NCBI GenBank assembly: GCA_031265685.1 | Contig: JAISCI010000045.1 | Span: forward strand, 15,467 to 79,466 | From: Clostridiales bacterium | Lineage (GTDB): Bacteria > Bacillota > Clostridia > Lachnospirales > WRAX01 | Direction of reading: 5' to 3' | DNA: 64,000 nucleotides | In this document: positions 1,159 to 64,000 of the stretch, piece after piece | How the letters are laid out: every line of letters starts with the position of its first letter | Numbering within the stretch: the stretch's first letter is position 1 | Program-made: the position numbers and the translations under genes | The notes under the pieces: generated by a model | The model's input: only the letters and a program-made list of their open reading frames with translations | The model's database searches: none | What the model was told of the DNA's origin: nothing

Positions 1159-1297
1159 ATACTGTTTCGGGTTAGATAGTGACATTTGTTTTTAAGAGCG
1201 ATAGCGCGTTCGCGCGGCTTTGAAGTTTGCGTGAACCAAGCAAACTTCAGAGGCGCGAACCTTAAAAACAAATGTCAACCTTCATTCCGAAACAGTG

Positions 1298-1298
<1 letters not shown>
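1159..1298. repeat. fold-back element at the luxS|rhaB junction (ATACTG-type termini, nested arms, 9-N9-9 core)
   Basis: ATACTGTTTCGG (1159-1170) pairs with CCGAAACAGTG (1287-1297). GACATTTGTTTTTAAG (1181-1196) pairs with CTTAAAAACAAATGTC (1261-1276). Core is GAAGTTTGC-gtgaaccaa-GCAAACTTC at 1222-1248. The element abuts the luxS stop codon. Confidence 0.85.
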
Positions 1299-3536
<2,238 letters not shown>

Positions 3537-4724
3537 TTATATTTTGTCCGCGCCCAGAACGTCCATCAGCGGCTCGCGCGTCTTCTTGCGCGTAACCTCG
3601 ACCAGCCCGAGCGCCGTCATGCCGACCACGGTGGACGAGATCCGATCCCTCGCGAAAGCGCGGCTCAGTTCCGCCAGCAATTCGTCGCGGCTCTGCTTTT
3701 CGCGCATATCTATGAAATCGATTATAATTATCCCGCCAAGGTTGCGCAGCCGCGCCTGCCGCGCTATCTCGGCCGCCGCCTCCAGATTCAGCCGCAGCGC
3801 GGAGTATTCGTGATCCTTCCGCCCGGGAAAGCGCCCGCTGTTCACGTCGATAACCCAGCAAGCCTCCGTGCGCTCGATAACAAGGAACCCGCCCGAGGCG
3901 AGCCATACCTTCTTATCCAGCACGCGGCGCGTGTCGCGGCGCAGCCCCATATCGGCGATCAGGTCGCCGCTCGGGACGCAGCGCACGCGCCCTTCCGCGC
4001 CGTCAAAGTAGTCCCGGACGGCGGCTCGGGCGCGTTCGGCCTCGCTCTCGCTGTTGATAACGACCTCGCCGATCTCCGCGCTGAAAAGGTCGCGCAGATT
4101 CCGCGTCAGCGCGTCGTCGTCGCGCTCGATAACGCATGGCGTCCGGCGGTACCGCCAGCGTTTGTCCAGATTGTCCGCCCTTGCCAGCAGCGATTTGATT
4201 TCGGACGTCAGCTCGTCCGCGCCGCGCCCCTCGCAATTGGTGCGGATGATGACGTCGTATCCGACGGGCAGAACGCTCTCGGCGGCCGCCTTAAGCCGCG
4301 ACCGCTCGTCCTCGCGCGTTATCTTCCGCGACAGCGATACGCCCGCGCGATCATAGCCTGTATTAAAAAGTATGCACAGACGCCCCGAAAAAGACAACTG
4401 GGTCGTCAGATACGCGCCTTTATCGGCGGTTTCGTCCTTAACCACCTGAACGGCCAGCGTCGAGCCGGGCTTTATCGTCAGCCTGCCGTCGGGATCGTAC
4501 AGCCGCGATTCTTTGATGTCGTTGAGGAAGAGGAAGCCGTTGCGCGAAAGACCCACGTCCACGAAAGCGAACTGGCTCGGGAGAACGCTGCGGACGACCC
4601 CGGCGAAAATCGCGCCGACGGCGGAACGCGGCTCGCGCTCGTCGATCAGCAGCTCGACCAGTCCGCGGCCGTCCGTCACGGCGGTTCTTATCGTGTCGCC
4701 ACAGTCGATAATGATACGATTCAT
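3537..4724 (-). CDS. rng: Rne/Rng-family ribonuclease (RNase G-like)
   Basis: 395 aa. N-terminal S1-like segment (GAIFAGVVRSVLPSQFAFVDVG) followed by an RNase E/G core (WVIDVNSGRF..IIIIDFIDM). Confidence 0.85.
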   Translation of the reverse strand: MNRIIIDCGDTIRTAVTDGRGLVELLIDEREPRSAVGAIFAGVVRSVLPSQFAFVDVGLSRNGFLFLNDIKESRLYDPDGRLTIKPGSTLAVQVVKDETADKGAYLTTQLSFSGRLCILFNTGYDRAGVSLSRKITREDERSRLKAAAESVLPVGYDVIIRTNCEGRGADELTSEIKSLLARADNLDKRWRYRRTPCVIERDDDALTRNLRDLFSAEIGEVVINSESEAERARAAVRDYFDGAEGRVRCVPSGDLIADMGLRRDTRRVLDKKVWLASGGFLVIERTEACWVIDVNSGRFPGRKDHEYSALRLNLEAAAEIARQARLRNLGGIIIIDFIDMREKQSRDELLAELSRAFARDRISSTVVGMTALGLVEVTRKKTREPLMDVLGADKI

Positions 4725-20728: not shown

Positions 20729-20820
20729 AATTATATCGCTATGGTGATTTTTGGAGTAATAAATACAATACTCGGTCGAACCTTGCAGCCTGCGGCAAGG
20801 CTTGGCTGGGTGTGACTTTA

Positions 20821-20955
20821 GAACCTGTATTCATAGATGCAATCGACGTCTTTTCGGCTGATTTCCCGTCGTTCTTTATCAGCCAAAAACTTGCGTACTC
20901 TCCCGGCGGAAAATCATCGCGGAAATCCGCCGATTCCACTAATGAATACAGGTTC
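20821..20955. mobile_element. MITE-like fold-back element, short copy (inverted relative to 3234-3536)
   Basis: Termini are GAACCTGTATTCAT (20821-20834) and ATGAATACAGGTTC (20942-20955). The reverse complement is collinear with both ends of 3234-3536 but lacks the inserted modules. Confidence 0.8.
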
Positions 20956-20982
20956 TTAATTTGGATGTAGCGTAAAGTGCAA

Positions 20983-22952: not shown

Positions 22953-23109
22953 GCGAATTTTGCCTGGCGAATTTCGCGTCGCATTTTCGCGTGACAGAAG
23001 TTTGCGTGAATCGAAGCATTATCGTGTGGTTCAAACGATAATGCGATGCAAACTTCGTTCAAGCGAAAATGCTTCGTCCAAGCGAAATTCCTTCCCGCAG
23101 AATTCCGCG
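22953..23109. repeat. ~157-bp composite multi-unit palindrome of the hairpin family
   Basis: Centred on CATTATCGT-gtggttcaa-ACGATAATG (23017-23043). Successive arm pairs are GAAGTTTGC/GCAAACTTC, GCATTTTCGC/GCGAAAATGC, GAATTTCGC/GCGAAATTC and GCGAATTTTGC/GCAGAATTCCGC. Confidence 0.85.
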
Positions 23110-30131: not shown

Positions 30132-30920
30132 TTACGAAAGCCCGAAGGAGCCGAGAAATAAATGGAAAGAGGACGGCTCCGGCACGAGAATAAAATAGCT
30201 GCGCGAACACGTCGCGCCGTCGCCGAAAACAGTCTCAATAAAAAGCGCCGAGTCGGCCACTTTTCCGAACTCGATCGCGGGTACCGAAAATACCGCCGCC
30301 GCCATATCCATCGTCAGCACAGGCACGCTTGGAAACACCTTGACGCCCGTCAGCTGGCCGAGCGCATTGAGGTATGCCGTTGAGAGGATGTTGCACATCT
30401 CGGTCAGGGCGGAAATATCCATATCGCTGAAGTCCCCTCTGAATTTCGCCCGGTTCAAAGAAATTTCGCCTGGCCGGATTTTGTTTGGCCGAATTCTGCT
30501 TGACTGAATTTTGCTTGACTGGATTTTGCTTGAATCACGCAAAATTCTTTCACTCAAAATTCTGTCACTCAAAATTCTGTCACGCGAAATTTCGGCGCAG
30601 AATTCATCGCCGTCCGGATCGGAAGCGTAGAGGTAGCGTATCAGAGTCCGAGCCTCGCCGGCCCTGATAATATAGAGGATCATCCCGGAGAGGTCGCCCG
30701 TTATCGTTACGAGCATACCGAACACCTGTTCCTCCGGGCCTCCCACCATAGCGGCGGCTTCCGCGAAGCCGAGCAGCCGGATGCGCGGAAGATGGATCAT
30801 AGCCTTGTCCGCGCCCAGCATCTTCGACAGCGCCGTGATCGCGTTGGAGCTTCCGATATTGCCCAGCTCCCGAAGCACGTCGAAATACAGCTCGCCGCCC
30901 GGCATGGTTGCTTTCATCAT
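30132..30920 (-). CDS. cheC: CheY-P phosphatase CheC carrying a 55-codon repeat-derived in-frame insert
   Basis: Both CheC active-site helices are present (DVLRELGN; SALTEMCN). At 262 aa it is longer than the ~210 aa usual for CheC, and the excess maps to 30441-30605. Confidence 0.85.
   Translation of the reverse strand: MMKATMPGGELYFDVLRELGNIGSSNAITALSKMLGADKAMIHLPRIRLLGFAEAAAMVGGPEEQVFGMLVTITGDLSGMILYIIRAGEARTLIRYLYASDPDGDEFCAEISRDRILSDRILSERILRDSSKIQSSKIQSSRIRPNKIRPGEISLNRAKFRGDFSDMDISALTEMCNILSTAYLNALGQLTGVKVFPSVPVLTMDMAAAVFSVPAIEFGKVADSALFIETVFGDGATCSRSYFILVPEPSSFHLFLGSFGLS
30441..30605. repeat. 165-bp multi-unit hairpin-family element inside cheC
   Basis: The left arm has six GAAWTTYGC-like units and the right arm five GCRAAWTTC-like units, centred on GATTTTGC-ttgaatcac-GCAAAATTC (30522-30547). 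Translated in the cheC frame it reads EFCAEISRDRILSDRILSERILRDSSKIQSSKIQSSRIRPNKIRPGEISLNRAKF. Confidence 0.9.
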
Positions 30921-31590: not shown

Positions 31591-31618
31591 ATACTAATCT
31601 CTTGACTGAGAATAGTAT
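31591..31618. repeat. minimal ATACT-type inverted repeat at the flhG|pilZ junction
   Basis: ATACTAATCTC-ttgact-GAGAATAGTAT (imperfect). The right end runs into the flhG stop (31618-31620). Confidence 0.5.
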
Positions 31619-37859: not shown

Positions 37860-38657
37860 CTATTTGAACGTTTTAACCAGGTTCTGTATAACAAGGTTCC
37901 AGCCGTCCACCATAACGAACAGCAAAACCTTAAAAGGCAGCGAGATCATCGCGGGGGGCAGCATCATCATGCCCATGGCCATCAGCGTGGACGCCACGAC
38001 CATATCAATCACGATGAACGGCATATAGATGTAGAAACCGAACCGGAACCCCTTTGTTATCTCCCCGACGACGAACGACGGCAGCAGCACCGAGTCGGGT
38101 ATGTCCTCGGGCCGCTCGAACGTCTCCCCCGCCAACGAGGCGAACATCGCTACGTCCTTAGTCTCCACCTGCCGCAGCATGAACGCCCGGATAGGTTCCA
38201 TGCCGCGCCCGACCGCTTCCTCCTGCGTTATCTCCCCCGCCGTAAAAGGTTTTATCGCCGTCTCGTTGACGGCGGACAGCGTCGGGGACATAACGAAGAA
38301 CGTTATGAACAGCGCCAGTCCGATGAGTATCTGATTCGGGGGCATCTGCTGCGTGCCGAGCGCCGACCGGACGAAGTGCAACGCGATTATAACGCGCGTA
38401 AAGCTCGTAAACAGCAGCAGTATAAACGGCGCGATCGAGATGACCGCCAGCACGAGCAGCACCTGCAGGCTCGAGACGGTCTCAGCCGGCGTTTCGGCTT
38501 CCGATACGTTTATGGATACGTTCGGCAGCGGAGCGGCGAGCGCCTCCGCCCGCGACGCAAGCAGCGCCGCCAGCAGCAGGATGGCAAACACCGCCGCGAA
38601 CGCCGCGCGTCTGCTTAAGGTAATTCCGCGCGAACCAGGCGAAATTCTTATTTTCAT
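37860..38657 (-). CDS. fliP: flagellar export apparatus protein FliP
   Basis: 265 aa. Signal-like N-terminus, then FTSFTRVIIALHFVRSALGTQQMPPNQ typical of FliP. Confidence 0.95.
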   Translation of the reverse strand: MKIRISPGSRGITLSRRAAFAAVFAILLLAALLASRAEALAAPLPNVSINVSEAETPAETVSSLQVLLVLAVISIAPFILLLFTSFTRVIIALHFVRSALGTQQMPPNQILIGLALFITFFVMSPTLSAVNETAIKPFTAGEITQEEAVGRGMEPIRAFMLRQVETKDVAMFASLAGETFERPEDIPDSVLLPSFVVGEITKGFRFGFYIYMPFIVIDMVVASTLMAMGMMMLPPAMISLPFKVLLFVMVDGWNLVIQNLVKTFK

Positions 38658-40498: not shown

Positions 40499-40640
40499 TA
40501 TACTGTTTCAGAATTAAGGCTGGCGTTTGTTTTGCAAGGTTCGCGCCTATGAAGTTCACTTGGATGAATTTTGCGTGATTCAAGCAAAATTCTGTCACGC
40601 CTTGAAAACAAATGTCACTGTTTGACCTTAAACAGTATTA
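40499..40640. repeat. fold-back element at the fliM|fliY junction
   Basis: TATACTGTTTCAG (40499-40511) pairs with AAACAGTATTA (40630-40640, includes the fliM stop). Inner arms are GTTTGTTTTGCAAGG and CCTTGAAAACAAATG. Core is GAATTTTGC-gtgattcaa-GCAAAATTC at 40566-40592. Confidence 0.85.
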
Positions 40641-41612: not shown

Positions 41613-41639
41613 ATCTTACGACCCTTTCCGACCGCTGAT

Positions 41640-41666
41640 ACTGATTCCGTTTAGAACGGAATCAGT
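41640..41666. repeat. minimal hairpin (terminal arms only) at the fliL|fliM junction
   Basis: ACTGATTCCGTT-tag-AACGGAATCAGT, a 12-bp perfect stem that abuts the fliL stop (41667). The arms match those of 47056-47243. Confidence 0.8.
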
Positions 41667-42159: not shown

Positions 42160-42324
42160 CTAATCCCGTTTTAGAGTACAGACAATATTTTTCAAGTCCG
42201 CGCCTTAACCAAGGTCATTTTCGCGTGACAGAAGTTTGCCTGGTTCACGCAAACTTCATCCATACGAAAATTCATTGCGCGCGCCGCTTTGAAAAATCTT
42301 GTCCGCTGATTTAATCGGGATTAG
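42160..42324. repeat. fold-back element at the motB|fliL junction (TAATCC-type termini)
   Basis: CTAATCCCG (42160-42168) pairs with CGGGATTAG (42316-42324). Inner arms are ATATTTTTCAAG and TTGAAAAAT. Core is GAAGTTTGC-ctggttcac-GCAAACTTC at 42231-42257. The right arm lies inside the last motB codons. Confidence 0.85.
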
Positions 42325-43024
42325 TAATATCCGCGTTTCCGCCGATTACCTTGATCTCGACTCTGCGGTTTTTTTCGCGCCCCTCGGGCGTGCCGTTCGA
42401 TTCGCGCGGGCGCCACTCGCCGTAGCCGACGGGCTTTAGTCGGGCGGGATCGACGCCATTCTCGGCGAAGAACGCCGCGACGCCCGCCGCCCTCGCGCAC
42501 GACAGAACCCAGTTGTCCTTCCACTGCCCGGACAGCACCGGCAGATCGTCGGCATGGCCCTCTATCTCCACCGCCGAACCGGGATACCCCGAGAGCGCCG
42601 CCGCCACTTCCATAAGCAGCGCCCGGGCGGAGCCGTTCAGCTCGGCGCTGTCCGCCTCGAACAGTATGTCGCCGGGCAGAGCCGCGCGGACGTACTCCCC
42701 GCCGACTATCTCCACTTCCGCGCCCCGCGCCGACAGCCTGCCGAAAGCTTCGGCTATGTCCGCCGCTACTTTCTCGAGAGCTGACGTTTCGGTTTCGGCC
42801 GCCGGGGATTCGGACGTAACCTCGGGCGTCACGGGCGGCGGTCCCGCCGGAAGATCCTCCGCTCCGATTTCAATAACCGCGGTTTCTACCGGTTCGACGA
42901 AGTCCGACAACTGAACGCCCGAAGCGCTGAGGAAGACGAAGAAACACAGCAGCAGCGTCGCCACGTCCGCGTATGTTACCAGCCAGCCGTTTTTGTCAGA
43001 CGGCGGCTTTTTCTTTGACGGCAT
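42311..43024 (-). CDS. motB: flagellar stator protein MotB (OmpA-like C-terminus)
   Basis: 237 aa. WLVTYADVATLLLCFFVF plug/TM region with the conserved Asp; an OmpA-like domain ending NRRVEIKV, followed by an added tail. Confidence 0.9.
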   Translation of the reverse strand: MPSKKKPPSDKNGWLVTYADVATLLLCFFVFLSASGVQLSDFVEPVETAVIEIGAEDLPAGPPPVTPEVTSESPAAETETSALEKVAADIAEAFGRLSARGAEVEIVGGEYVRAALPGDILFEADSAELNGSARALLMEVAAALSGYPGSAVEIEGHADDLPVLSGQWKDNWVLSCARAAGVAAFFAENGVDPARLKPVGYGEWRPRESNGTPEGREKNRRVEIKVIGGNADITNPD

Positions 43025-45204: not shown

Positions 45205-45764
45205 ACCGCTTCCGCCTCCCCCGTCTGTTCCGCCGTGTCCGCCGCCTGTTCCGGCTCGTCAGCCGTCTTTTCCGGCTCGTAAGCCGTCTTTTCCGGCTCG
45301 TAAGCCGTCTTCCCGGAACCGCCGATTATATCGGCCAGTTCCTGGTCGAATATATACACCACGTCGGACAAGCTGATCTCCGACCCGCCGACCACGAGAT
45401 ACGGCGTATTGTTCCTCATCGACACCGCGTCCACGCGCCCGCCGACCGAATAGACAGTCCCCGTAACCGTGTCGGCTACGTCCGCCGCGATATACTTTCC
45501 GATCATCGCGAACGACTGGGAGCTGACCATGGCGGCGTTCATGTTCTGCATCTGCTCCAGCGCCGAGAACTGCGCCATCTGCGCGATAAACGTCTTATCG
45601 TCCGTCGGGTTCAGCGGGTCCTGATACTGAAGCTGCGTCACGAGCAGCCGCAGGAAGTCGTCCTTGCCCAGATCGTTTCCCGTTTTGGCCGCCGTCCGGC
45701 CCGTCTCCGCCAGCCCGGGCGCGTATGTCCCGACGAGCGCCGAATTCGTTAGCGTTTCCGCCAT
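45201..45764 (-). CDS. flgD: flagellar hook assembly (capping) protein FlgD
   Basis: 187 aa with FLRLLVTQLQYQDPLNP and FIAQMAQFSALEQMQNMN motifs. The C-terminal tail carries 7-aa repeats. Confidence 0.9.
   Translation of the reverse strand: MAETLTNSALVGTYAPGLAETGRTAAKTGNDLGKDDFLRLLVTQLQYQDPLNPTDDKTFIAQMAQFSALEQMQNMNAAMVSSQSFAMIGKYIAADVADTVTGTVYSVGGRVDAVSMRNNTPYLVVGGSEISLSDVVYIFDQELADIIGGSGKTAYEPEKTAYEPEKTADEPEQAADTAEQTGEAEAV
45249..45311. repeat. 3 x 21-bp tandem repeat in the flgD 3' end
   Basis: TTCCGGCTCGT(C/A)AGCCGTCTT three times in a row. It encodes KTAYEPE/KTAYEPE/KTADEPE in the flgD frame. Confidence 0.9.
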
Positions 45765-47055: not shown

Positions 47056-47243
47056 TATACTGATTCCATTTTGATCGACGTTTGATGTTGTCTTAGACAA
47101 CATCAAGCCGTCTTCTTGAAGGACGCCGAATATTTTTTCGGTCCGCGCCTGAAGCCGCGCGGTGGAAGTTTGCGTGGACCAAACAAACTTCCGACGCGCA
47201 AGCTCGAAAAAATATTCGGCACAAATCTAAATGGAATCAGTAT
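47056..47243. repeat. fold-back element at the ylxF-like|fliK junction (longest flagellar copy)
   Basis: TATACTGATTCCATTT (47056-47071) pairs with AAATGGAATCAGTAT (47229-47243). Palindrome GATGTTGTC-tta-GACAACATC lies at 47084-47104. Inner arms are CCGAATATTTTTTCGG and CGAAAAAATATTCGG. Core is GGAAGTTTGC-gtggaccaa-ACAAACTTCC at 47164-47192. Confidence 0.85.
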
Positions 47244-48025: not shown

Positions 48026-48466
48026 CTACTCACCCCTAAAGAACCTGTACGACCCAACCTCGTCGGAGATCTTCTGTTCGCTCCGTTTCTCGGCTTCGTT
48101 ATATTCCTCGCGCTTCCTGTCGCGCAGCGTCTCCAGCGCCTTCCTGTCGCGCATACGCTCTATCAGCTCTTCGCGGCGCTCGTCAGCCGCCCGCGCCGCT
48201 TCGCTCACGGCTTTGTCCTGCCTGGCGGCGTCCGAGCGCAGCCGCGCCATATATCCGCCGTACAGCAGCAGTTCCCCGGGCGAAGGACGTTCCCGCGCCG
48301 CGTCGCGGAAGGATTCCAGCCCTTCGGACTGTCTTTCGGAGATCTCCGCGCGGACGTGTTTTTGCCGCTCCAGTTCGGCCACGGCGCGTCCGTATTCGTT
48401 TTTTTTCTGGTTCTCCAGCTTCTCTCGGACGCCGAGCAGGCCGCCCAGCCGGAACCGAAACGCCAT
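48026..48466 (-). CDS. fliJ: flagellar export chaperone-like protein FliJ
   Basis: 146 aa coiled coil beginning MAFRFRLGGLLGVREKLENQKKNEY; position after fliI. Confidence 0.85.
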   Translation of the reverse strand: MAFRFRLGGLLGVREKLENQKKNEYGRAVAELERQKHVRAEISERQSEGLESFRDAARERPSPGELLLYGGYMARLRSDAARQDKAVSEAARAADERREELIERMRDRKALETLRDRKREEYNEAEKRSEQKISDEVGSYRFFRGE

Positions 48467-48480
48467 GCGATCACTTCTCT

Positions 48481-48605
48481 TAATCCTATTTAGATTTGTA
48501 GATAAAATTTTTCAAGCGTCCGCGCGGTTTTGAAGTTTGCTTGGTTCACGCAAACTTCTCAGGCGCGGACTGGAAAATTTTTATCCGTCCTTTAGAATAG
48601 GATTA
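48481..48605. repeat. fold-back element at the fliI|fliJ junction (TAATCC-type termini)
   Basis: TAATCCTATT (48481-48490) pairs with AATAGGATTA (48596-48605). Inner arms are AAAATTTTTCAAG and GGAAAATTTTT. Core is GAAGTTTGC-ttggttcac-GCAAACTTC at 48532-48558. The right 25 nt lie inside the fliI 3' end. Confidence 0.85.
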
Positions 48606-49918
48606 GTCTTCAATATTTGTTCCATCCGTTCTACCGTCTCGCCGAAATCGGCCTTCTCGTCGGTTCTCTGCGTCAGGAACGCCTTTATACCGGCGTTTTT
48701 GGCGACGGCCTCGTCTATCTCCGCGCTCGCGCCCTTGGCGTAGGCCCCTATGTTTATTAGATCCTCGGCGTCGGCGTAGACGGCCATCAGACGCTTTATC
48801 TCGCGTGCGGCGGCCTTGTGCCCGTCCGACGCGACGTCGCCCATGACGCGGCTCACGCTCGCGAGAACGTCTATCGCGGGGTAGTGGTTCCTGTTCGCCA
48901 GCTTGCGCGACAGCACGATATGCCCGTCGAGTATCCCGCGCGACGTGTCCGTTACGGGTTCGGTCAGGTCGTCGCCGTCCACGAGGACGGTGTATATGCC
49001 CGTTATCGAGCCTTTCGCGCCCTTGCCAGCCCGTTCCAGAAGCTTCGGCAGGGCGGCGTATACCGACGGCGTGTACCCCCGGCTTACCGGCGGTTCGCCT
49101 GTCGCGAGACCCACCTCGCGCTGCGCCATCGCGTACCGCGTCAGCGAGTCCATCATGAGCAGCACGTCCCGGCCGCCGGCGCGGAAATACTCGGCTATGG
49201 CCGTCGCCGTCTCGGCGGCTTTCAGGCGTATGAGCGCGGGCTTGTCGCTTGTCGCCACGACCAGCACGGAACGGGCCAGTCCTTCCTCACCCAAATCCTT
49301 CTCGATGAATTCCTTTACTTCCCTGCCGCGCTCGCCGATCAGCGCGATGACGTTGATCCCGGCCCTGGTATTCCGGGCTATCATGCCCATCAGCGTGGAC
49401 TTGCCCACGCCGGATCCCGCGAATATGCCGATCCTCTGGCCTTTGGCGACGGTGATAAGCCCATCCAACGCGCGCACGCCCAGCGGCAGCGGATCGGTGA
49501 TCCGCGCGCGCTCCATAGGGTCGGGCGGGGTATTCGCTATTGGGACGGGAACGCCCGCGACGGCGCTCTTGCCGTCCGACGGCGCCCCAAGCCCGTCGAG
49601 CACGCGCCCAAGCAGAGCGTCCGAAACAGTCACGGATAACGGCTCGTCGCTGGCTTCCACCGCCGAACCGGGACCTATGCCCGAAATATCGCCGAGCGGC
49701 ATGAGCAGTATCCGGCTGCCGCCGAAACCGACCACTTCCGCCGGGACGGGCTGCGCGCGCTTGCCTGCGCGGATGAGGCAGCGGCTGCCGATCGGAACGT
49801 CCGGCCCGACCGACTCTATCGTCAGTCCGGCTACCCGCTCGACGCGTCCGGCGCGCTTTATCAGGCTTTTCGCTATCGCCGCGCGGTATTTATATACGTC
49901 AACCGCCGTCGTCCCCAC
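48581..49918 (-). CDS. fliI: flagellum-specific ATPase FliI
   Basis: 445 aa with Walker A GSGVGKST and Walker B LLMMDS. Confidence 0.95.
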   Translation of the reverse strand: MGTTAVDVYKYRAAIAKSLIKRAGRVERVAGLTIESVGPDVPIGSRCLIRAGKRAQPVPAEVVGFGGSRILLMPLGDISGIGPGSAVEASDEPLSVTVSDALLGRVLDGLGAPSDGKSAVAGVPVPIANTPPDPMERARITDPLPLGVRALDGLITVAKGQRIGIFAGSGVGKSTLMGMIARNTRAGINVIALIGERGREVKEFIEKDLGEEGLARSVLVVATSDKPALIRLKAAETATAIAEYFRAGGRDVLLMMDSLTRYAMAQREVGLATGEPPVSRGYTPSVYAALPKLLERAGKGAKGSITGIYTVLVDGDDLTEPVTDTSRGILDGHIVLSRKLANRNHYPAIDVLASVSRVMGDVASDGHKAAAREIKRLMAVYADAEDLINIGAYAKGASAEIDEAVAKNAGIKAFLTQRTDEKADFGETVERMEQILKTNPILKDG

Positions 49919-50642
49919 CGCCCATTATCGCGAACAGATTGCGCTTCAGAGTCTCCAGCTGCGTGTCCGCCGATACGTCCACCGAACCGAACGGCGTCTC
50001 GATGACGGCATCGCCGTCCTCGAACGACGGGTCGGCGGTCAGCTCCAGCTTGGCCCCGCCCGCCGCGCCCGACAACTCGTCCATACGACCGGCGATTTCG
50101 CCGTAACGGGACTTCGATACGCGGATCGCGGCGACGCCGGTTATCGTCTTGTCGGAGAGGCCCTTTCGTATCATCGCCAGTATCGCGTCGCCGCCGAACC
50201 TGACGGCTCCGCCCACGATACTCTCGCAAATCTCCGCGATAAGCCCGACCAGTCTCGGTTCCGCCTCGGCTATTATCTCGTCTCGGCGGCGTATGGACTC
50301 GGACAGCGCGTTTTCGGCTTCCGCGCGGAGCTTGTCGGCTTCGTCCCGGGCGTCGGCAAGGCCGTCGGCATAGCCCCTCTCCCGCCCGTCAAGCTCGGCT
50401 TCCCGCCGTATGCGCTCGCTCTCCTCCCGCGCGGCGGCAAGCTCCCGCTCCGCGTCCGCCTCAGCCGCCGATACTATCCGCCCGGCTTCTTCCCGCGCCG
50501 CCGCCAGTATGTTCCCGGACAAGTCCGGGGGCGGTTCCGGCGCGGGCGCGGGTCCCGGTTCCTCGGGAATGCCGGGCGCTCTCGCTATATAGTATCTGTC
50601 GTCGGACAGATTAACATGCGGGGCTTTGAGAACGCTAGACAA
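49899..50642 (-). CDS. fliH: flagellar assembly protein FliH
   Basis: 247 aa. Glu/Arg/Ala-rich coiled coil plus a FliH-type C-terminal domain; position between fliG and fliI. Confidence 0.8.
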   Translation of the reverse strand: MSSVLKAPHVNLSDDRYYIARAPGIPEEPGPAPAPEPPPDLSGNILAAAREEAGRIVSAAEADAERELAAAREESERIRREAELDGRERGYADGLADARDEADKLRAEAENALSESIRRRDEIIAEAEPRLVGLIAEICESIVGGAVRFGGDAILAMIRKGLSDKTITGVAAIRVSKSRYGEIAGRMDELSGAAGGAKLELTADPSFEDGDAVIETPFGSVDVSADTQLETLKRNLFAIMGGGDDGG

Positions 50643-51672
50643 TTATCTCGTCCCCCCCGCCCCTAGCGACGATAATCTCGCCGGCGTCCTGCAGCCGGCG
50701 GATGATGTTCACTATCTTCTGCTGCGCCTCGTCCACGTCGGACTTGCGCACCGGACCCATATACTCCATGTCCTCGCGGATCATGGCCGACAGCCGCTTC
50801 GAGATATTCGCGAGTATCACGCCTCGCACCTCGGCGCTGGCGCCCTTCAGCGCCACGGCCAGCTCGCGGTTGTCGATATCCGAACGCAGGACGGTCTGGA
50901 TCGAGCGGTTGTCCATCGTGATGATGTCCTCGAATACGAACATCTTGCGTTTTATCTCCTCGGAGAGATCGTAGTCCTCGCCGGCGAGCGTCTCCATAAT
51001 GTTCTTCTCGGTGGCCCGGTCCACGGCGCTGAGTATCTCGACCACGGCGTCCACGCCGCCGACCGTCGTGTAGTCTTCGGTCATGAGGCTCGAGAGCCGT
51101 TTCTCGAGCGCTCGCTCGACTTCCTTCACTACTTCGGGGCTGGTCCTGTCCATCGTGGCGATGCGCCGCGCCACGTTCGTCTGGAGCCGCGGCTCCAGCT
51201 CGGCCAGCACCTGCGCCGCCTGCTGCGGGCGAAGGTACGACAGTATCAGCGCGATAATCTGCGGATGCTCGTTCCGGATAAAGTTAAGCACCTGCGTCGG
51301 ATCGGCCTTGCGCACGAAATCGAACGGTCGCGTCTTAAGCGACGCGGTTAGTTTCAATATGACCTGACGCGCGCGCTCCGGGCCGAGCGCCTTCTCGAGC
51401 ACCTGTTTGGCGTAGTTCAGCCCGCCCTCCTCGATGTACCGCTGCGCGAGGCATATCTGGTAGAACTCGTCCAGCACCCGTTCCTTGACGTCGGGCATGA
51501 CGGCGGCTATGTTTGAAATCTCCAGCGTCAGCGACTCGATCTCGTCTTCCTTCAGATGCTTGAATATCCTCGCGGATTTCTCCGGCCCGAGGGATATGAG
51601 CAGTATGGCCGCCTTCTGCTTGCCCGAAAGGCTGTCCAGTTTTTTCCCGCGTTCCAGCGCGGCGGTCGGCAT
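50635..51672 (-). CDS. fliG: flagellar motor switch protein FliG
   Basis: 345 aa with LSGKQKAAILLISLG at the N-terminus, an MFVFEDI motif and a charged torque helix region. Confidence 0.95.
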   Translation of the reverse strand: MPTAALERGKKLDSLSGKQKAAILLISLGPEKSARIFKHLKEDEIESLTLEISNIAAVMPDVKERVLDEFYQICLAQRYIEEGGLNYAKQVLEKALGPERARQVILKLTASLKTRPFDFVRKADPTQVLNFIRNEHPQIIALILSYLRPQQAAQVLAELEPRLQTNVARRIATMDRTSPEVVKEVERALEKRLSSLMTEDYTTVGGVDAVVEILSAVDRATEKNIMETLAGEDYDLSEEIKRKMFVFEDIITMDNRSIQTVLRSDIDNRELAVALKGASAEVRGVILANISKRLSAMIREDMEYMGPVRKSDVDEAQQKIVNIIRRLQDAGEIIVARGGGDEIIV

Positions 51673-51676
51673 ACTA

Positions 51677-53308
51677 TCACTCCCAATCGTCGTTCAGCCA
51701 GTTGCGCATCAGCGCGGCGGCCGCCTCGGGCTTCTCGTCCACCAGCTTGTCAAGCTGCCGCCTCATGTCCGATTCGAGTCCTATCTCAATCTCGCTCAGT
51801 TTCTCGGGTTCGGGCCGCGACGGCTCCTCCGGCTGACCGCTCATAAGCAGTTCCTCCACCGAAAGCTCCGGCTCGATCTCCTCATCCGCGACGGGTTTCG
51901 CCCGGCGCAGCAGGCCATACGCCAGAAGGATGATCAGCAGAGCCAGCGCGGCCATCGTAACGATCTGGCTGAGGGCCATTGGCGCGGGCGGCGGCGCGTC
52001 CGTAAACACCGGCACCATGTACCCGACTACGGAGAGGTTCTTTATCCCCGTTCCCATCTTGAGCGACTCCGCGAAGTTCTGATCAACGGTAAACTCCGAA
52101 GGCTTCGTATCGGCTTTGAAGTCCGCCCACGTCGTCCCGTCCAGCTTGCCTTGCGCCTTCATGTCGGCCTCGGCGTAAGGGGCGTACCGGTACACGTATA
52201 CCGACATGCTGGAGTCTCCGGCCAGCATGTTGCCGATCTGCCCCGTCTTGTTCTGCTCGACGACATTATAGATGTAACTGGCTTCCTTCTCGTTCAGCGA
52301 GGAGGCGCTTGTCTCGCCGCCCTGCATAACGTATGTCGGAGTCTCCTGGTTGTTGGCGCCGACGCCCGGCTCGCCGCCCGCCGCCGTCCCCGACGAGGAC
52401 GACTTGCTCGTCTTTTCGCTGTCGGTGAATCCGCTCGCGGCTTCGTCCCCCAAGGGGTTCGTGTACGTGCGCGACTGCTCCGAGATTGTGTCCCAGTTGA
52501 ATCGCAGATTGAATATTATCGACGTCTCGTCGAAGAGCGGGCGCGCGGCGCGCTTGATCTCGTCCTCGAGAGCGCTCTTCATCAGCGACTCGGCCTCGAA
52601 CTGCGTCTTTATGCCGCCGCCCGCCGCCGCCGAGCCGCCCGAGAACAGCATGTTGTAGTTCTGATCGGTTATCTCGACATTGGATACGTCAAGATTCTTG
52701 ACGCTTCTGGCCACAAAACGGGCGACGGCCTCGGCCTGCCCCGCGTCGAGCTGCCCGTCCGTCTCGACGAGCACCGCCGCCGTAGCCTCCGCTTCCGGGA
52801 GGAAGAAGTTGGTGTCTCCGGGGATGACGAGCTGGACGCTCGCGGCGCGGACGCCCCTCATCTTGCCGATTATTCCCTCCAGCTCGGTCTGCTTGGCTTT
52901 TTTCAGGTTCTCATTCTTGATCGTATCCGTCGTACCCATCGACGAGTATTCCAAGGCGTCGTAATAGGTGAATTTATTGCCGGAGAACACGTTCGCCGTC
53001 TCCAGCGCCAGCCGCGCCTGCCCCAGGTCGCGGGAATTGACACGCAGCGCCGTGCCGTTCTCAGCCAATTCGGACGCTATGCCCGCGCTGTCAAGGGCGC
53101 CCTGGGCCGACACTATCGTCGCCGCGTCCTGATTGTTGACGAGAACGTACATAGCCGGGCGAAGCGTCAAATAAACGGTTATACCAAGGGCGACAAGGAA
53201 TACCGCCGCGATTATGATTATTCGGACGCGCCGGCTCGCCTCTATTCCGTTCCATTTCGCCAACGCGTCGCCGGCTGCCGCCTTAATCCTGTCCAGCATT
53301 CCGTTCAC
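51677..53308 (-). CDS. fliF: flagellar MS-ring protein FliF
   Basis: 543 aa. Two TM segments flank a large periplasmic domain; acidic C-terminus (FliG-binding). GTG 53308 or ATG 53299 could be the start. Confidence 0.9.
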   Translation of the reverse strand: MNGMLDRIKAAAGDALAKWNGIEASRRVRIIIIAAVFLVALGITVYLTLRPAMYVLVNNQDAATIVSAQGALDSAGIASELAENGTALRVNSRDLGQARLALETANVFSGNKFTYYDALEYSSMGTTDTIKNENLKKAKQTELEGIIGKMRGVRAASVQLVIPGDTNFFLPEAEATAAVLVETDGQLDAGQAEAVARFVARSVKNLDVSNVEITDQNYNMLFSGGSAAAGGGIKTQFEAESLMKSALEDEIKRAARPLFDETSIIFNLRFNWDTISEQSRTYTNPLGDEAASGFTDSEKTSKSSSSGTAAGGEPGVGANNQETPTYVMQGGETSASSLNEKEASYIYNVVEQNKTGQIGNMLAGDSSMSVYVYRYAPYAEADMKAQGKLDGTTWADFKADTKPSEFTVDQNFAESLKMGTGIKNLSVVGYMVPVFTDAPPPAPMALSQIVTMAALALLIILLAYGLLRRAKPVADEEIEPELSVEELLMSGQPEEPSRPEPEKLSEIEIGLESDMRRQLDKLVDEKPEAAAALMRNWLNDDWE

Positions 53309-53323
53309 CCCGTATTACGATTC

Positions 53324-53473
53324 ATACTGTTTCAGAAGTAAGGTTGACATTCGCTTTTAAGGTTCGCGACCATGAAGTCCGCGTGGACGAAGTTCACGTG
53401 AACCACGCAAAATTCCGTCACGCGAAAATTACCTTCTTAAAAACAAGTATCACTGTCTGAGCTGAAACAGTAT
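53324..53473. repeat. fold-back element at the fliE|fliF junction
   Basis: ATACTGTTTCAG (53324-53335) pairs with CTGAAACAGTAT (53462-53473). Inner arms are GACATTCGCTTTTAAGG and CCTTCTTAAAAACAAGTATC. The centre contains degenerate core units (GAAGTTCAC-gtgaaccac-GCAAAATTC). Confidence 0.85.
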
Positions 53474-53474
53474 C

Positions 53475-53780
53475 TTACATCGAAAGCCGCATTATTTCCT
53501 TATAGGCTTCCACGGCCTTGTTCGTAACCTGCACGGTGAAAGAAAGCGCGGCGTAAGCCTTTTCCTGCGCGAGCATTACCGACAGCATATCGTCGGAGTG
53601 CCCGGCGGCGAAATCCAGCTGCGCCCGGTCGGCCGCCAGCTGATAGTCGTTGGTCTGCGCGATCAGATTCGTGTATGAGTCAAAGAAATACTCGAAAGGC
53701 TGCGCGTCCTTCTCCCCGGCGGATTCTCCGGCGAGCGGCGCCAGCGGCGCGAACGACGCGCCCACAGCGTTAACATACAC
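53475..53780 (-). CDS. fliE: flagellar hook-basal body protein FliE
   Basis: 101 aa, GTG start. The C-terminal NKAVEAYKEIMRLSM is typical of FliE. Confidence 0.85.
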   Translation of the reverse strand: MYVNAVGASFAPLAPLAGESAGEKDAQPFEYFFDSYTNLIAQTNDYQLAADRAQLDFAAGHSDDMLSVMLAQEKAYAALSFTVQVTNKAVEAYKEIMRLSM

Positions 53781-53798
53781 TCAGATCAGTCCTTTCGT

Positions 53799-53895
53799 TA
53801 TACCGTTTCAGGATTAAGGCTGACATTTGTTTTTAAGGTTCACGCGAAAATTACCTTCTTAAAAACAAATGCCGCCGTACAACCTGAAACAGTAT
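53799..53895. repeat. fold-back element at the flgC|fliE junction (no core module)
   Basis: TATACCGTTTCAGG (53799-53812) pairs with CCTGAAACAGTAT (53883-53895). Inner arms are GACATTTGTTTTTAAGG and CCTTCTTAAAAACAAATG. The right end overlaps the flgC stop. Confidence 0.85.
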
Positions 53896-63185: not shown

Positions 63186-64000
63186 ATGGATGACATTATG
63201 GAGGCAATTTCGCGTGAACCAAGCGAAATTCTTAAGGCAATTTCGCGTGAACCAGGCGAAATTCTTATCGAAATCACGGACATAGGATCGGAGGGCGAGG
63301 GGATCGGCCGGCTTGACGGACTGGCGGTGTTCGTGCCGGGCGGTTTCCCGGGGGACGCCGTCCGCGCGCGGATAACGTCGCGGCGTTCAGGGTTCGCGCG
63401 GGCGGAGATGACGGGGATAGTCCGCCCGTCCGCCGACAGGGTTCCGCCGATATGCGCTAACGCCCGCTGCGGCGGCTGTCCGCTTTCGGGCTTTTCGTAC
63501 TCGGCGCAGCTCCGCTTCAAGCGTAAACGCGCCGCCGACGCCCTCGTCCGGATCGGAGGGGCGGATGGCTTCGTCTGGGACGAGACCGCGCCGTCGGAAC
63601 CCGATCTGCCCTGCCGCTGGAAGGCTTCTTTCGGGGTATCGCGCGGACGGGTCGGTTTCGCGGCGCGCGGGAGCCGCGATATTGTCGAGCCGGCGGACTG
63701 CCCGGTTATCCAGCCGGCCCACCACGCGGTATTGGAAGCGGTTCGCGCCGATATACCCGGATGGCTTCGCGGGCTTATCGTCCGCGTCAGCTCCGTTTCG
63801 GGCGAGACGTCCGTCACGCTTGTCTCGCGGGAAGCCGACCCGGACGCGTCCGCGGTCGTTTCCGCGCTGTCCGCGGCGGGCGCGTCCCAGATCGCCCTTG
63901 CCGTCAACGCGGACGAATCCTCCCCGGCGAACGCGGCGGAGGGTCTGCCGCGCCGCGTTATATACGGAAGGAACTATATCACCGAGCGGATCGGCGGGGT
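63186..64000 (+). CDS. rlmD: 23S rRNA (uracil-5-)-methyltransferase RlmD/RumA family; 3' end cut by window edge
   Basis: Manual translation from ATG 63186 (SD GGAGGG 5 nt upstream): MDDIMEAISREPSEILKAISREPGEILIEITDIGSEGEGIGRLDGLAVFVPGGFPGDAVRARIT (TRAM domain), then C..CGGC Fe-S cysteines. Absent from the ORF track because it is open at the edge. Confidence 0.8.
   Translation, partial: MDDIMEAISREPSEILKAISREPGEILIEITDIGSEGEGIGRLDGLAVFVPGGFPGDAVRARITSRRSGFARAEMTGIVRPSADRVPPICANARCGGCPLSGFSYSAQLRFKRKRAADALVRIGGADGFVWDETAPSEPDLPCRWKASFGVSRGRVGFAARGSRDIVEPADCPVIQPAHHAVLEAVRADIPGWLRGLIVRVSSVSGETSVTLVSREADPDASAVVSALSAAGASQIALAVNADESSPANAAEGLPRRVIYGRNYITERIGG
63203..63268 (+). repeat. 2 x 33-bp tandem hairpin units inside the rlmD 5' coding end
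   Basis: GGCAATTTCGC-gtgaaccaa-GCGAAATTCTTAA followed by GGCAATTTCGC-gtgaaccag-GCGAAATTCTTAT. Each unit is 11 codons (AISREPSEILK / AISREPGEILI). Confidence 0.9.

Follow-up and report, generated by a model that had tools for sequence, protein, structure and literature searches.

The end of fliI, stop codon included, lies in a MITE-like foldback repeat at the fliI-fliJ junction of a Clostridiales flagellar operon

Our analysis shows that the gene for the flagellar export ATPase FliI, in a Clostridiales MAG, ends within a foldback repeat (E3) located between fliI and fliJ. The working stop codon of fliI lies in this element, as does the sequence coding for its last eight residues. We consider it likely, with a probability of roughly 0.75, that E3 is a dispersed, non-coding, MITE-like copy that landed on the ancestral fliI stop codon or a few bases before it. 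At most about 1-3 native FliI residues would have been replaced, so that the event would mainly have been a displacement of the stop.

Results

The 64-kb stretch of DNA analysed here (the window) has a GC content of 61% and carries a flagellar/chemotaxis operon on its minus strand, running from ~54.8 kb down to ~30 kb. Pfam matches and gene calls identified flgB, flgC, fliE, fliF, fliG, fliH, fliI and fliJ, together with motB, fliL, fliM, fliP and a CheC-like gene. A 260-aa ORF of the operon (orf260) had no Pfam match, and a fliK-like ORF was assigned by synteny only. The fliH and fliI genes of the window share a 20-nt overlap.

E3 is AT-rich (39% GC vs 61% for the window) and consists of nested inverted repeats (Table 1). 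Its outer arms, TAATCCTATT and AATAGGATTA, are 10 nt long and 100% complementary. Within them lie a 16-nt pair (88%), an 8-nt GC pair, GTCCGCGC/GCGCGGAC (100%), and a central hairpin. As RNA, E3 forms an end-to-end fold of -47.6 kcal/mol (z = -6.9), a stability matched by 0/200 shuffles. It overlaps the 3' end of fliI by 25 nt. A sequence-only reading of this DNA had placed the right arm of the element inside fliI, and its coordinates proved exact, with both outer arms found where it had put them. The end of FliI, ..MEQILKTNPILKDG*, is coded by AAG ACT AAT CCT ATT CTA AAG GAC GGA TAA. The same reading credited the element with nine codons and the stop; the stop is indeed supplied by E3, but the codons number eight, since AAG (K437) lies outside the element. 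The strict inverted repeat alone supplies seven full codons plus 1 nt of the tail.

Table 1. Positions in the window of the genes, repeat copies and element parts discussed in the text
Feature	Position	Strand	Remarks
fliI	48581..49918	-	flagellar export ATPase; 445 aa; Pfam ATP-synt_ab and T3SS_ATPase_C
fliJ	48026..48466	-	146 aa; Pfam FliJ; start MAFRFRL aligns with relatives' MAFKFRL
motB	42311..43024	-	237 aa; stop 12-14 nt inside E1
E3	48481..48605		AT-rich foldback (MITE-like) element between fliI and fliJ; 125 nt; nested inverted repeats; fold
E3 outer arm, fliJ side	48481..48490	-	TAATCCTATT; 14 nt upstream of fliJ ATG
E3 outer arm, fliI side	48596..48605	-	AATAGGATTA (TAATCCTATT on the gene strand); inside fliI
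E3 central hairpin	48532..48558		GAAGTTTGC-(9 nt)-GCAAACTTC; common to the family; pattern matches, RNAalifold
Working fliI stop TAA	48581..48583	-	in the middle stem arm of E3
Element-derived FliI codons T438-G445 (TNPILKDG)	48584..48607	-	eight codons; homology end, Pfam domain end
Candidate displaced native fliI stop TGA	48471..48473	-	4 nt before fliJ ATG; in frame only after excision
E1	42160..42324		CTAATCC terminus; between motB and fliL; -68.9 kcal/mol, z = -8.1
E2	47057..47243		ATACTGATTCC termini; between orf260 and fliK; third base of upstream TGA is first element base
A1	1159..1298		directly after luxS stop
A2	40500..40638		ATACTGTTTC-type; after fliM; third base of TAA is element base 1; ribosome-binding site AGGAGGG at other end
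A3	53324..53473		between fliE and fliF; stop 1 nt before element
A4	53800..53895		between flgC and fliE; third base of TAA is first element base
Mini copy, 28 nt	31591..31618		termini only; at flhG stop codon
Mini copy, 29 nt	41638..41666		flush with fliL TGA

Alignment of FliI C-termini was used to locate the end of the native protein. Homology to 119 relatives ends at K437. Orthologs lacking the element but still ending in a KTNPILKDG-like tail would have spoken against a repeat-derived end; a TNP, NPI or LKDG-like tail was found in 0/119 homologues. Just over half of them (61/119) end 20-21 residues after a conserved F-x-x-Q motif (median 21), and only 5/119 reach 28 residues or more past it, as the window's FliI does (28 residues). 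The first 20 of those residues end at ..MEQILK, and the nearest relative (P0002, 76% identity) stops at the position of K437 (..IMEEILK*). The Pfam domain T3SS_ATPase_C ends at residue 434. Based on these homology and domain ends and on the stop of P0002, K437 is taken as native, and T438-G445 with the TAA as element sequence. The same terminus recurs at unrelated junctions, which likewise indicates that it belongs to the element and not to fliI. Homology thus stops at the repeat boundary, and both tail and stop lie in the repeat, as expected of a repeat-derived C-terminal extension.

The fliI-fliJ junction was then compared among five relatives, all of which have fliI followed by fliJ. The element was absent from this junction in 5/5 loci (L001, L002, L003, L031 and L032), where the fliI-to-fliJ gap is -1, 2, 11, 49 and -1 nt, respectively; the 49-nt spacer of L031 is unrelated sequence. 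These empty sites come from distant relatives, with FliI identities of 72-76%. In L001, the nearest relative, a TAATG overlaps the fliJ start. The neighboring junction shows the reverse arrangement: an E3-like arm of L001, TAATACTATTCT..ATAAAAA..CCGCGCC.GAGAA, opens with the three bases of the fliH stop TAA (1419-1421) and aligns to E3 with a score of 25 (shuffle maximum 20), so that the fliH-fliI junction is occupied in L001 and empty in the window. Another copy, ATACTATTTC...GAAATAGTAT, lies ahead of flgE in L003, whereas the family was absent from the flagellar junctions inspected in L031 and L032 (46-47% GC). Polymorphism at orthologous sites, as is typical of MITEs, was therefore seen at both fliI-fliJ and fliH-fliI, among distant relatives. 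Since the occupied junctions differ between lineages, mobility is a better explanation than an ancestral regulatory structure.

Repeats and palindromes are known to break assemblies, and Logan contigs of the same sample do end inside copies of the family. The MAG contig could accordingly have been mis-joined at the repeat, in which case the FliI tail would not be real. However, over 48538-53869 the Logan assembly of SRR14710922 agrees with the window throughout (0 mismatches), although it may share its reads with the MAG. This match reproduces the fliI end, with its tail and stop, and the fliI-side half of the element; the fliJ-side half and its junction fall outside it. An identical 445-aa FliI protein is recorded in both NCBI and Logan, and the shared gene order of the five relatives also argues against a mis-join. 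We regard an artefact as extremely improbable. Searches through flanking proteins beyond the window returned only short Logan contigs, all inside the window.

Six further copies in the window can be aligned with E3. The seven long copies (E1-E3 and A1-A4) each fold as a single long hairpin, with z values of -3.1 to -11.6. They share a plan that runs, from the outside to the centre, through a terminus, ~9 nt of unpaired sequence, a TTTTTCAAG/TTTTTAAG stem, a GC clamp and a core hairpin, GAAGTTTGC-N9-GCAAACTTC. The termini are of related types: (C)TAATCC in E1 and E3, ATACTGATTCC in E2 and ATACTGTTTC in A1-A4. MAFFT aligned ACTAATCC with ACTGATTC and ACTGTTTC. Three mini copies, with little beyond the termini, were found at flhG-pilZ, fliL-fliM and flgB-flgC. 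The window thus holds at least 10 copies of the superfamily, only two of them with a TAATCC terminus. The motif TAATCCYRTT occurs three times (0.25 expected), and the core-hairpin pattern has 12 matches at 10 distinct sites (0.01 expected), in both orientations. RNAalifold recovered the central stem in 6/7 copies of the MAFFT alignment; because arm lengths differ it recovered only this stem, and per-copy folding was used instead. Arm pairing is kept between copies despite differing arm sequences. As in MITEs, the copies are short (96-187 nt; mini copies 28-29 nt) and lack an ORF of their own, and 7/7 long copies pair end to end through terminal inverted repeats. The inverted-repeat list of the 64-kb window contained no autonomous IS whose ends match. 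Neither plasmids nor phages matched the element, and viral contigs gave 0 matches.

Searches for a known RNA or signal were likewise negative. Rfam returned 0 gathering-level matches in the window and, below threshold, only the models of a plant miRNA (26 bits) and Erse sRNA (19.7 bits), each scoring well short of its gathering value. No intrinsic terminator was predicted at any element on the minus strand (11 in total vs a shuffle mean of 14.7), and promoter predictions at the elements did not exceed chance. Core-hairpin scans of other sequence collections gave 7 matches in genome contigs without the source MAG, about chance by our estimate, and 17 metagenome loci, again about our chance estimate after duplicates were collapsed. 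One spacer of the Oscillospiraceae bacterium Nm470_bin129 (L004, 2780-2880) carries GAATTTTGC-TTGRWYCAC-GCAAAATTC twice, with opposite loop orientations. Among the genome-contig matches only this one looks like a real relative, though a tentative one with match counts about at chance. Metagenome Ga0208629 (L012, L017, L022, L023, L025 and L026) has its own repeat with ATTTCGCGTGAACCAGGCGAAAT, arranged in tandem with a period of ~160 nt in L022; that it shares the hairpin is probably coincidence.

The sequence-only reading also held that the terminus seen in fliI ends motB, giving two unrelated proteins a common repeat-encoded TNP tail. The terminus is there: the CTAATCC arm of E1 codes for the end of MotB, ..GGNADITNPD* (NRRVEIKVIGGNADITNPD), through ATT ACT AAT CCC GAT TAA, and E1 thereby supplies TNPD. 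Any special meaning of the shared tail was rejected, however, since it arises when two genes enter the same terminus in the same frame, for which the chance is 1 in 3 (p = 1/3). MotB homologues end 7-12 residues past NRRVEIK, and the tail length of the window's MotB is normal. Because these tails are unconserved, neither a homology end nor a replacement point can be placed, and the alignment is only compatible with a repeat-derived C-terminus for MotB.

If E3 was inserted into the end of fliI, the original stop should lie beyond it. Excision of TAATCC..GGATTA yields ..EQILKTEK*, and excision of CTAATCC..GGATTAAG plus one flanking AGA yields ..EQILKK*; both open frames end at the TGA at 48471-48473, which is thus a candidate for the displaced stop that the sequence-only reading had suggested looking for downstream. 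Since an in-frame TGA has a prior of roughly 1 in 3, this is supporting evidence and not proof. The flanks of E3 allow an AGA/AGA duplication that hinges on a 1-nt ambiguity of the terminus; those of E1 show none. A TA target duplication of the IS630/mariner type was rejected, as excision on that model fuses FliI to FliJ and MotB to FliL. Taken together, the homology end, the empty sites of the relatives and the excision models support that reading's proposal of an insertion at the extreme 3' end of fliI, with the C-terminus and stop replaced.

Copy ends were surveyed against ORF 3' ends for the 10 copies at operon junctions in the window. The stop lies inside the element in 2/10 copies, motB (12-14 nt) and fliI (23-25 nt). 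In 4/10 the element's first base doubles as the third base of the upstream stop (fliM, orf260, flgC and flhG), and in 3/10 the stop is flush or 1 nt away (fliL, fliE and luxS); the flgB copy (1/10) has a degenerate end. At the other end of the element the ribosome-binding site of the downstream gene always follows immediately, and the next start codon lies 13-24 nt away. Edges of the ATAC type that lie on the upstream stop or within 1 nt of it are at 1298, 31618, 40638, 41666, 47243, 53473 and 53895.

Discussion

Based on these observations, we propose that the short gaps between genes of the flagellar operon were colonised by a family of foldback repeats, and that one copy, E3, reached the end of fliI. 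The most economical course would be an insertion 4 nt ahead of the stop, within ..TTG AAG A^AG TGA. The ancestral site would read ..TTGAAGAAGTGATCGCATG if insertion inside the gene duplicated 3 bp (AGA), or ..TTGAAGACAGAGAAGTGA.. without duplication. Translation would now pass K437 into the arm of E3, read ACT AAT CCT ATT CTA AAG GAC GGA and end at the first in-frame TAA, leaving the old TGA stranded beyond the element. The new tail was presumably tolerated, and perhaps neutral, because the extreme C-terminus of FliI is naturally variable and the arm closes all three frames within 25 nt.

The same end state could have been reached if the element first inserted at or after the fliI stop and a later small deletion or point change removed that stop, causing read-through. 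Most operon-junction copies (7/10) do abut the upstream stop or lie no more than 1 nt from it, with edge forms TA/ATACTG, TG/ATACTG, TGA/ACTG and TAA g/ATACTG (the slash marks the element edge); the fliH stop of L001 is flush too, and the EnhC tail of Coxiella arose in this way, through an indel (PMC5896051). However, the copies of the TAATCC type (E1 and E3) differ in their outer bases from those of the ATAC type, no remnant of a stop remains between AAG and ACTAATCC, and the excision models already provide a plausible native stop downstream. We therefore judge later loss of the stop to be unlikely, and prefer direct insertion of E3 at the end of fliI.

Such an insertion would also have altered the start of the next gene. 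In the nearest relative, a GGAGG lies inside the fliI coding sequence and fliJ starts in the TAATG overlap (L001 2800-2816). The window counterpart of that GGAGG is GGAAC, and only AGAGAAG precedes fliJ (48467-48480). An overlap like that of the nearest relative would thus have been replaced by a structured 114-nt spacer, and fliJ may now rely on the flanking AGAGAAG as its ribosome-binding site. To judge from these motifs, the insertion apparently swapped the translational coupling of fliI and fliJ for a weak stand-alone ribosome-binding site.

The placement of the copies invites two further explanations. The hairpins may be retained intercistronic RNA modules (stabilisers, RNase III sites or devices for translational coupling) that set the amounts of flagellar proteins, with the FliI tail as a by-product. 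Copies are present at no fewer than 10 junctions of a single operon, they always lie between a stop codon and the downstream ribosome-binding site, and pairing between the arms is kept while their sequences differ, all of which would suit such a role. REP/BIME, ERIC and Correia repeats are, moreover, generally known to affect mRNA fate (see also the discussion in PMC5896051). Against this, the occupied junctions vary between relatives, the core occurs in both orientations, and the copies have no Rfam match and no terminator signature above chance. The observed placement is also roughly what purifying selection alone predicts, because insertions elsewhere break a gene or a ribosome-binding site. 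For these reasons, we find a regulatory role improbable.

Alternatively, the family may select stop codons as targets, duplicating T-R-A as TRA...TRA, with fliI and motB as rare near-misses. Copies of the ATAC type have perfect TRA...TRA flanks in 3/7 cases, and as random pairing gives 31% perfect the preference is not significant for the 7-9 informative copies. This idea must be considered tentative and rather doubtful. If it were true, the upstream stop would be kept and the downstream ribosome-binding site left intact, and the junctions of an essential operon could be saturated without polar damage. To our knowledge, neither a stop-codon-targeting transposable element nor a set of domesticated intercistronic hairpins descended from one has been described.

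Repeats that supply C-termini and stops are already known from other bacteria. RU-1/ERIC (IRU) of enterobacteria is an intergenic repeat, an imperfect palindrome of ~127 bp (Delihas 2007, PMC2759123). Where it lies at the 3' end of a gene, the normal stop is eliminated and repeat-encoded residues are added past the conserved domain (PMC2759123). This is the same situation as in fliI, although E3 shares no sequence similarity with it and comes from a Gram-positive-type Clostridiales MAG; the tails are also shorter here, at 4 and 8 aa vs 13-35 aa. In Coxiella burnetii, QMITE1 and QMITE2 extend 1-50 bp into the 3' ends of working genes (Wachter et al. 2018, PMC5896051). One QMITE supplies the last 33 aa of EnhC, and the gene end is marked by a stable stem (PMC5896051). 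The sequences are unrelated, and QMITEs are scattered over the Coxiella genome whereas the present copies are concentrated at the junctions of one essential operon.

The family also resembles the Correia elements (CREE) of Neisseria and other bacterial MITEs in its size of 100-190 bp, its terminal inverted repeats, the long hairpin of its transcript, its many copies adjoining genes and its AT-rich targets. Correia elements have a clear TA duplication and carry IHF and promoter motifs. In contrast, the TA-duplication model was rejected for both E3 and E1. Like REP, BIME and REPIN sequences, the copies are palindromic repeats found after stop codons within operons. REPs are units of 20-40 nt with a conserved GTAG-type head, occur singly or as inverted doublets and are mobilised by RAYT transposases. 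The copies described here are instead single long foldbacks with true terminal inverted repeats; inspection of the copy alignment by eye showed no GTAG-type head, and the family falls outside the definition of REP/BIME/REPIN. Compared with these precedents, the fliI case is real but an ordinary side effect.

The fliI case nevertheless illustrates how essential genes, such as those for FliI and MotB, can survive when a selfish foldback repeat rewrites their final codons and stop. For annotation, it means that an unusual C-terminal tail in a MAG protein can come from a repeat. The dense placement of copies at the stop codons of one operon is the only feature that may lead somewhere new, with implications for target choice and possibly for operon stoichiometry. 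This stop-flush pattern and an insertion in CheC are the most noteworthy by-products of the analysis.

Within the CheC-like ORF (30132-30920, minus strand), positions 30432-30602 hold a palindromic array of hairpins in which GAATTTTGC-TTGAC occurs three times and is then mirrored. The array is translated in frame and adds 57 residues (FCAEISRDRILSDRILSERILRDSSKIQSSKIQSSRIRPNKIRPGEISLNRAKFRGD) between two CheC half-motifs. All CheC homologues found (40/40) are 200-214 aa long vs 262 aa here, and eight that were aligned show a clean gap at the position of the insert. Of its six frames, the translated one alone is free of stops. The array is related to the foldback family and is an intragenic insertion like those of the Rickettsia palindromic elements (RPE). 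In RPE, too, a palindromic repeat is translated within the host protein, and the CheC insert is their closest parallel here; the sequences are unrelated, and the fliI case differs in being a terminal overlap and not an internal in-frame insertion.

Other repeat modules were noted in the window. One core hairpin unit (AATTTCGCCTGGTTCGCGCGGAATT) occupies the first codons (MKIRISPGSRGITLS..) of fliP (37860-38657, minus strand), at 38621-38647. The Pfam FliP domain starts at residue 69, after this unit, and the FliP N-terminus may be repeat-derived or its start codon mis-called. A 34-nt segment with hairpin GATGTTGTCTAAGACAACATC occurs at 3452-3485 and again at 47071-47104, 100% identical, inverted and 43 kb apart. 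The second occurrence splits E2's left arm, pointing to another small module of recent activity nested within that element. A third type of terminus (TTAGAACCTGTATTCAT..) flanks two elements, at 3230-3537 and 20817-20959. Their arms are 91-96% identical, far more alike than those of the flagellar copies, and these elements therefore probably moved more recently. At 63198-63268 and 22969-23068, we observed tandem 33-nt units carrying the core hairpin (CAATTTCGCGTGAACCARGCGAAATTCTTAAGG, twice) and, separately, a nested hairpin-in-hairpin whose stems differ but whose loop is similar (GTGGTTCAA). The stems co-vary around a retained loop, GTG-NNN-CAA with a G.A mismatch. Finally, three to four tandem 21-nt repeats (CCGTCTKTTCCGGCTCGTMAG) lie at 45221-45304, between flgE and the fliK-like gene.
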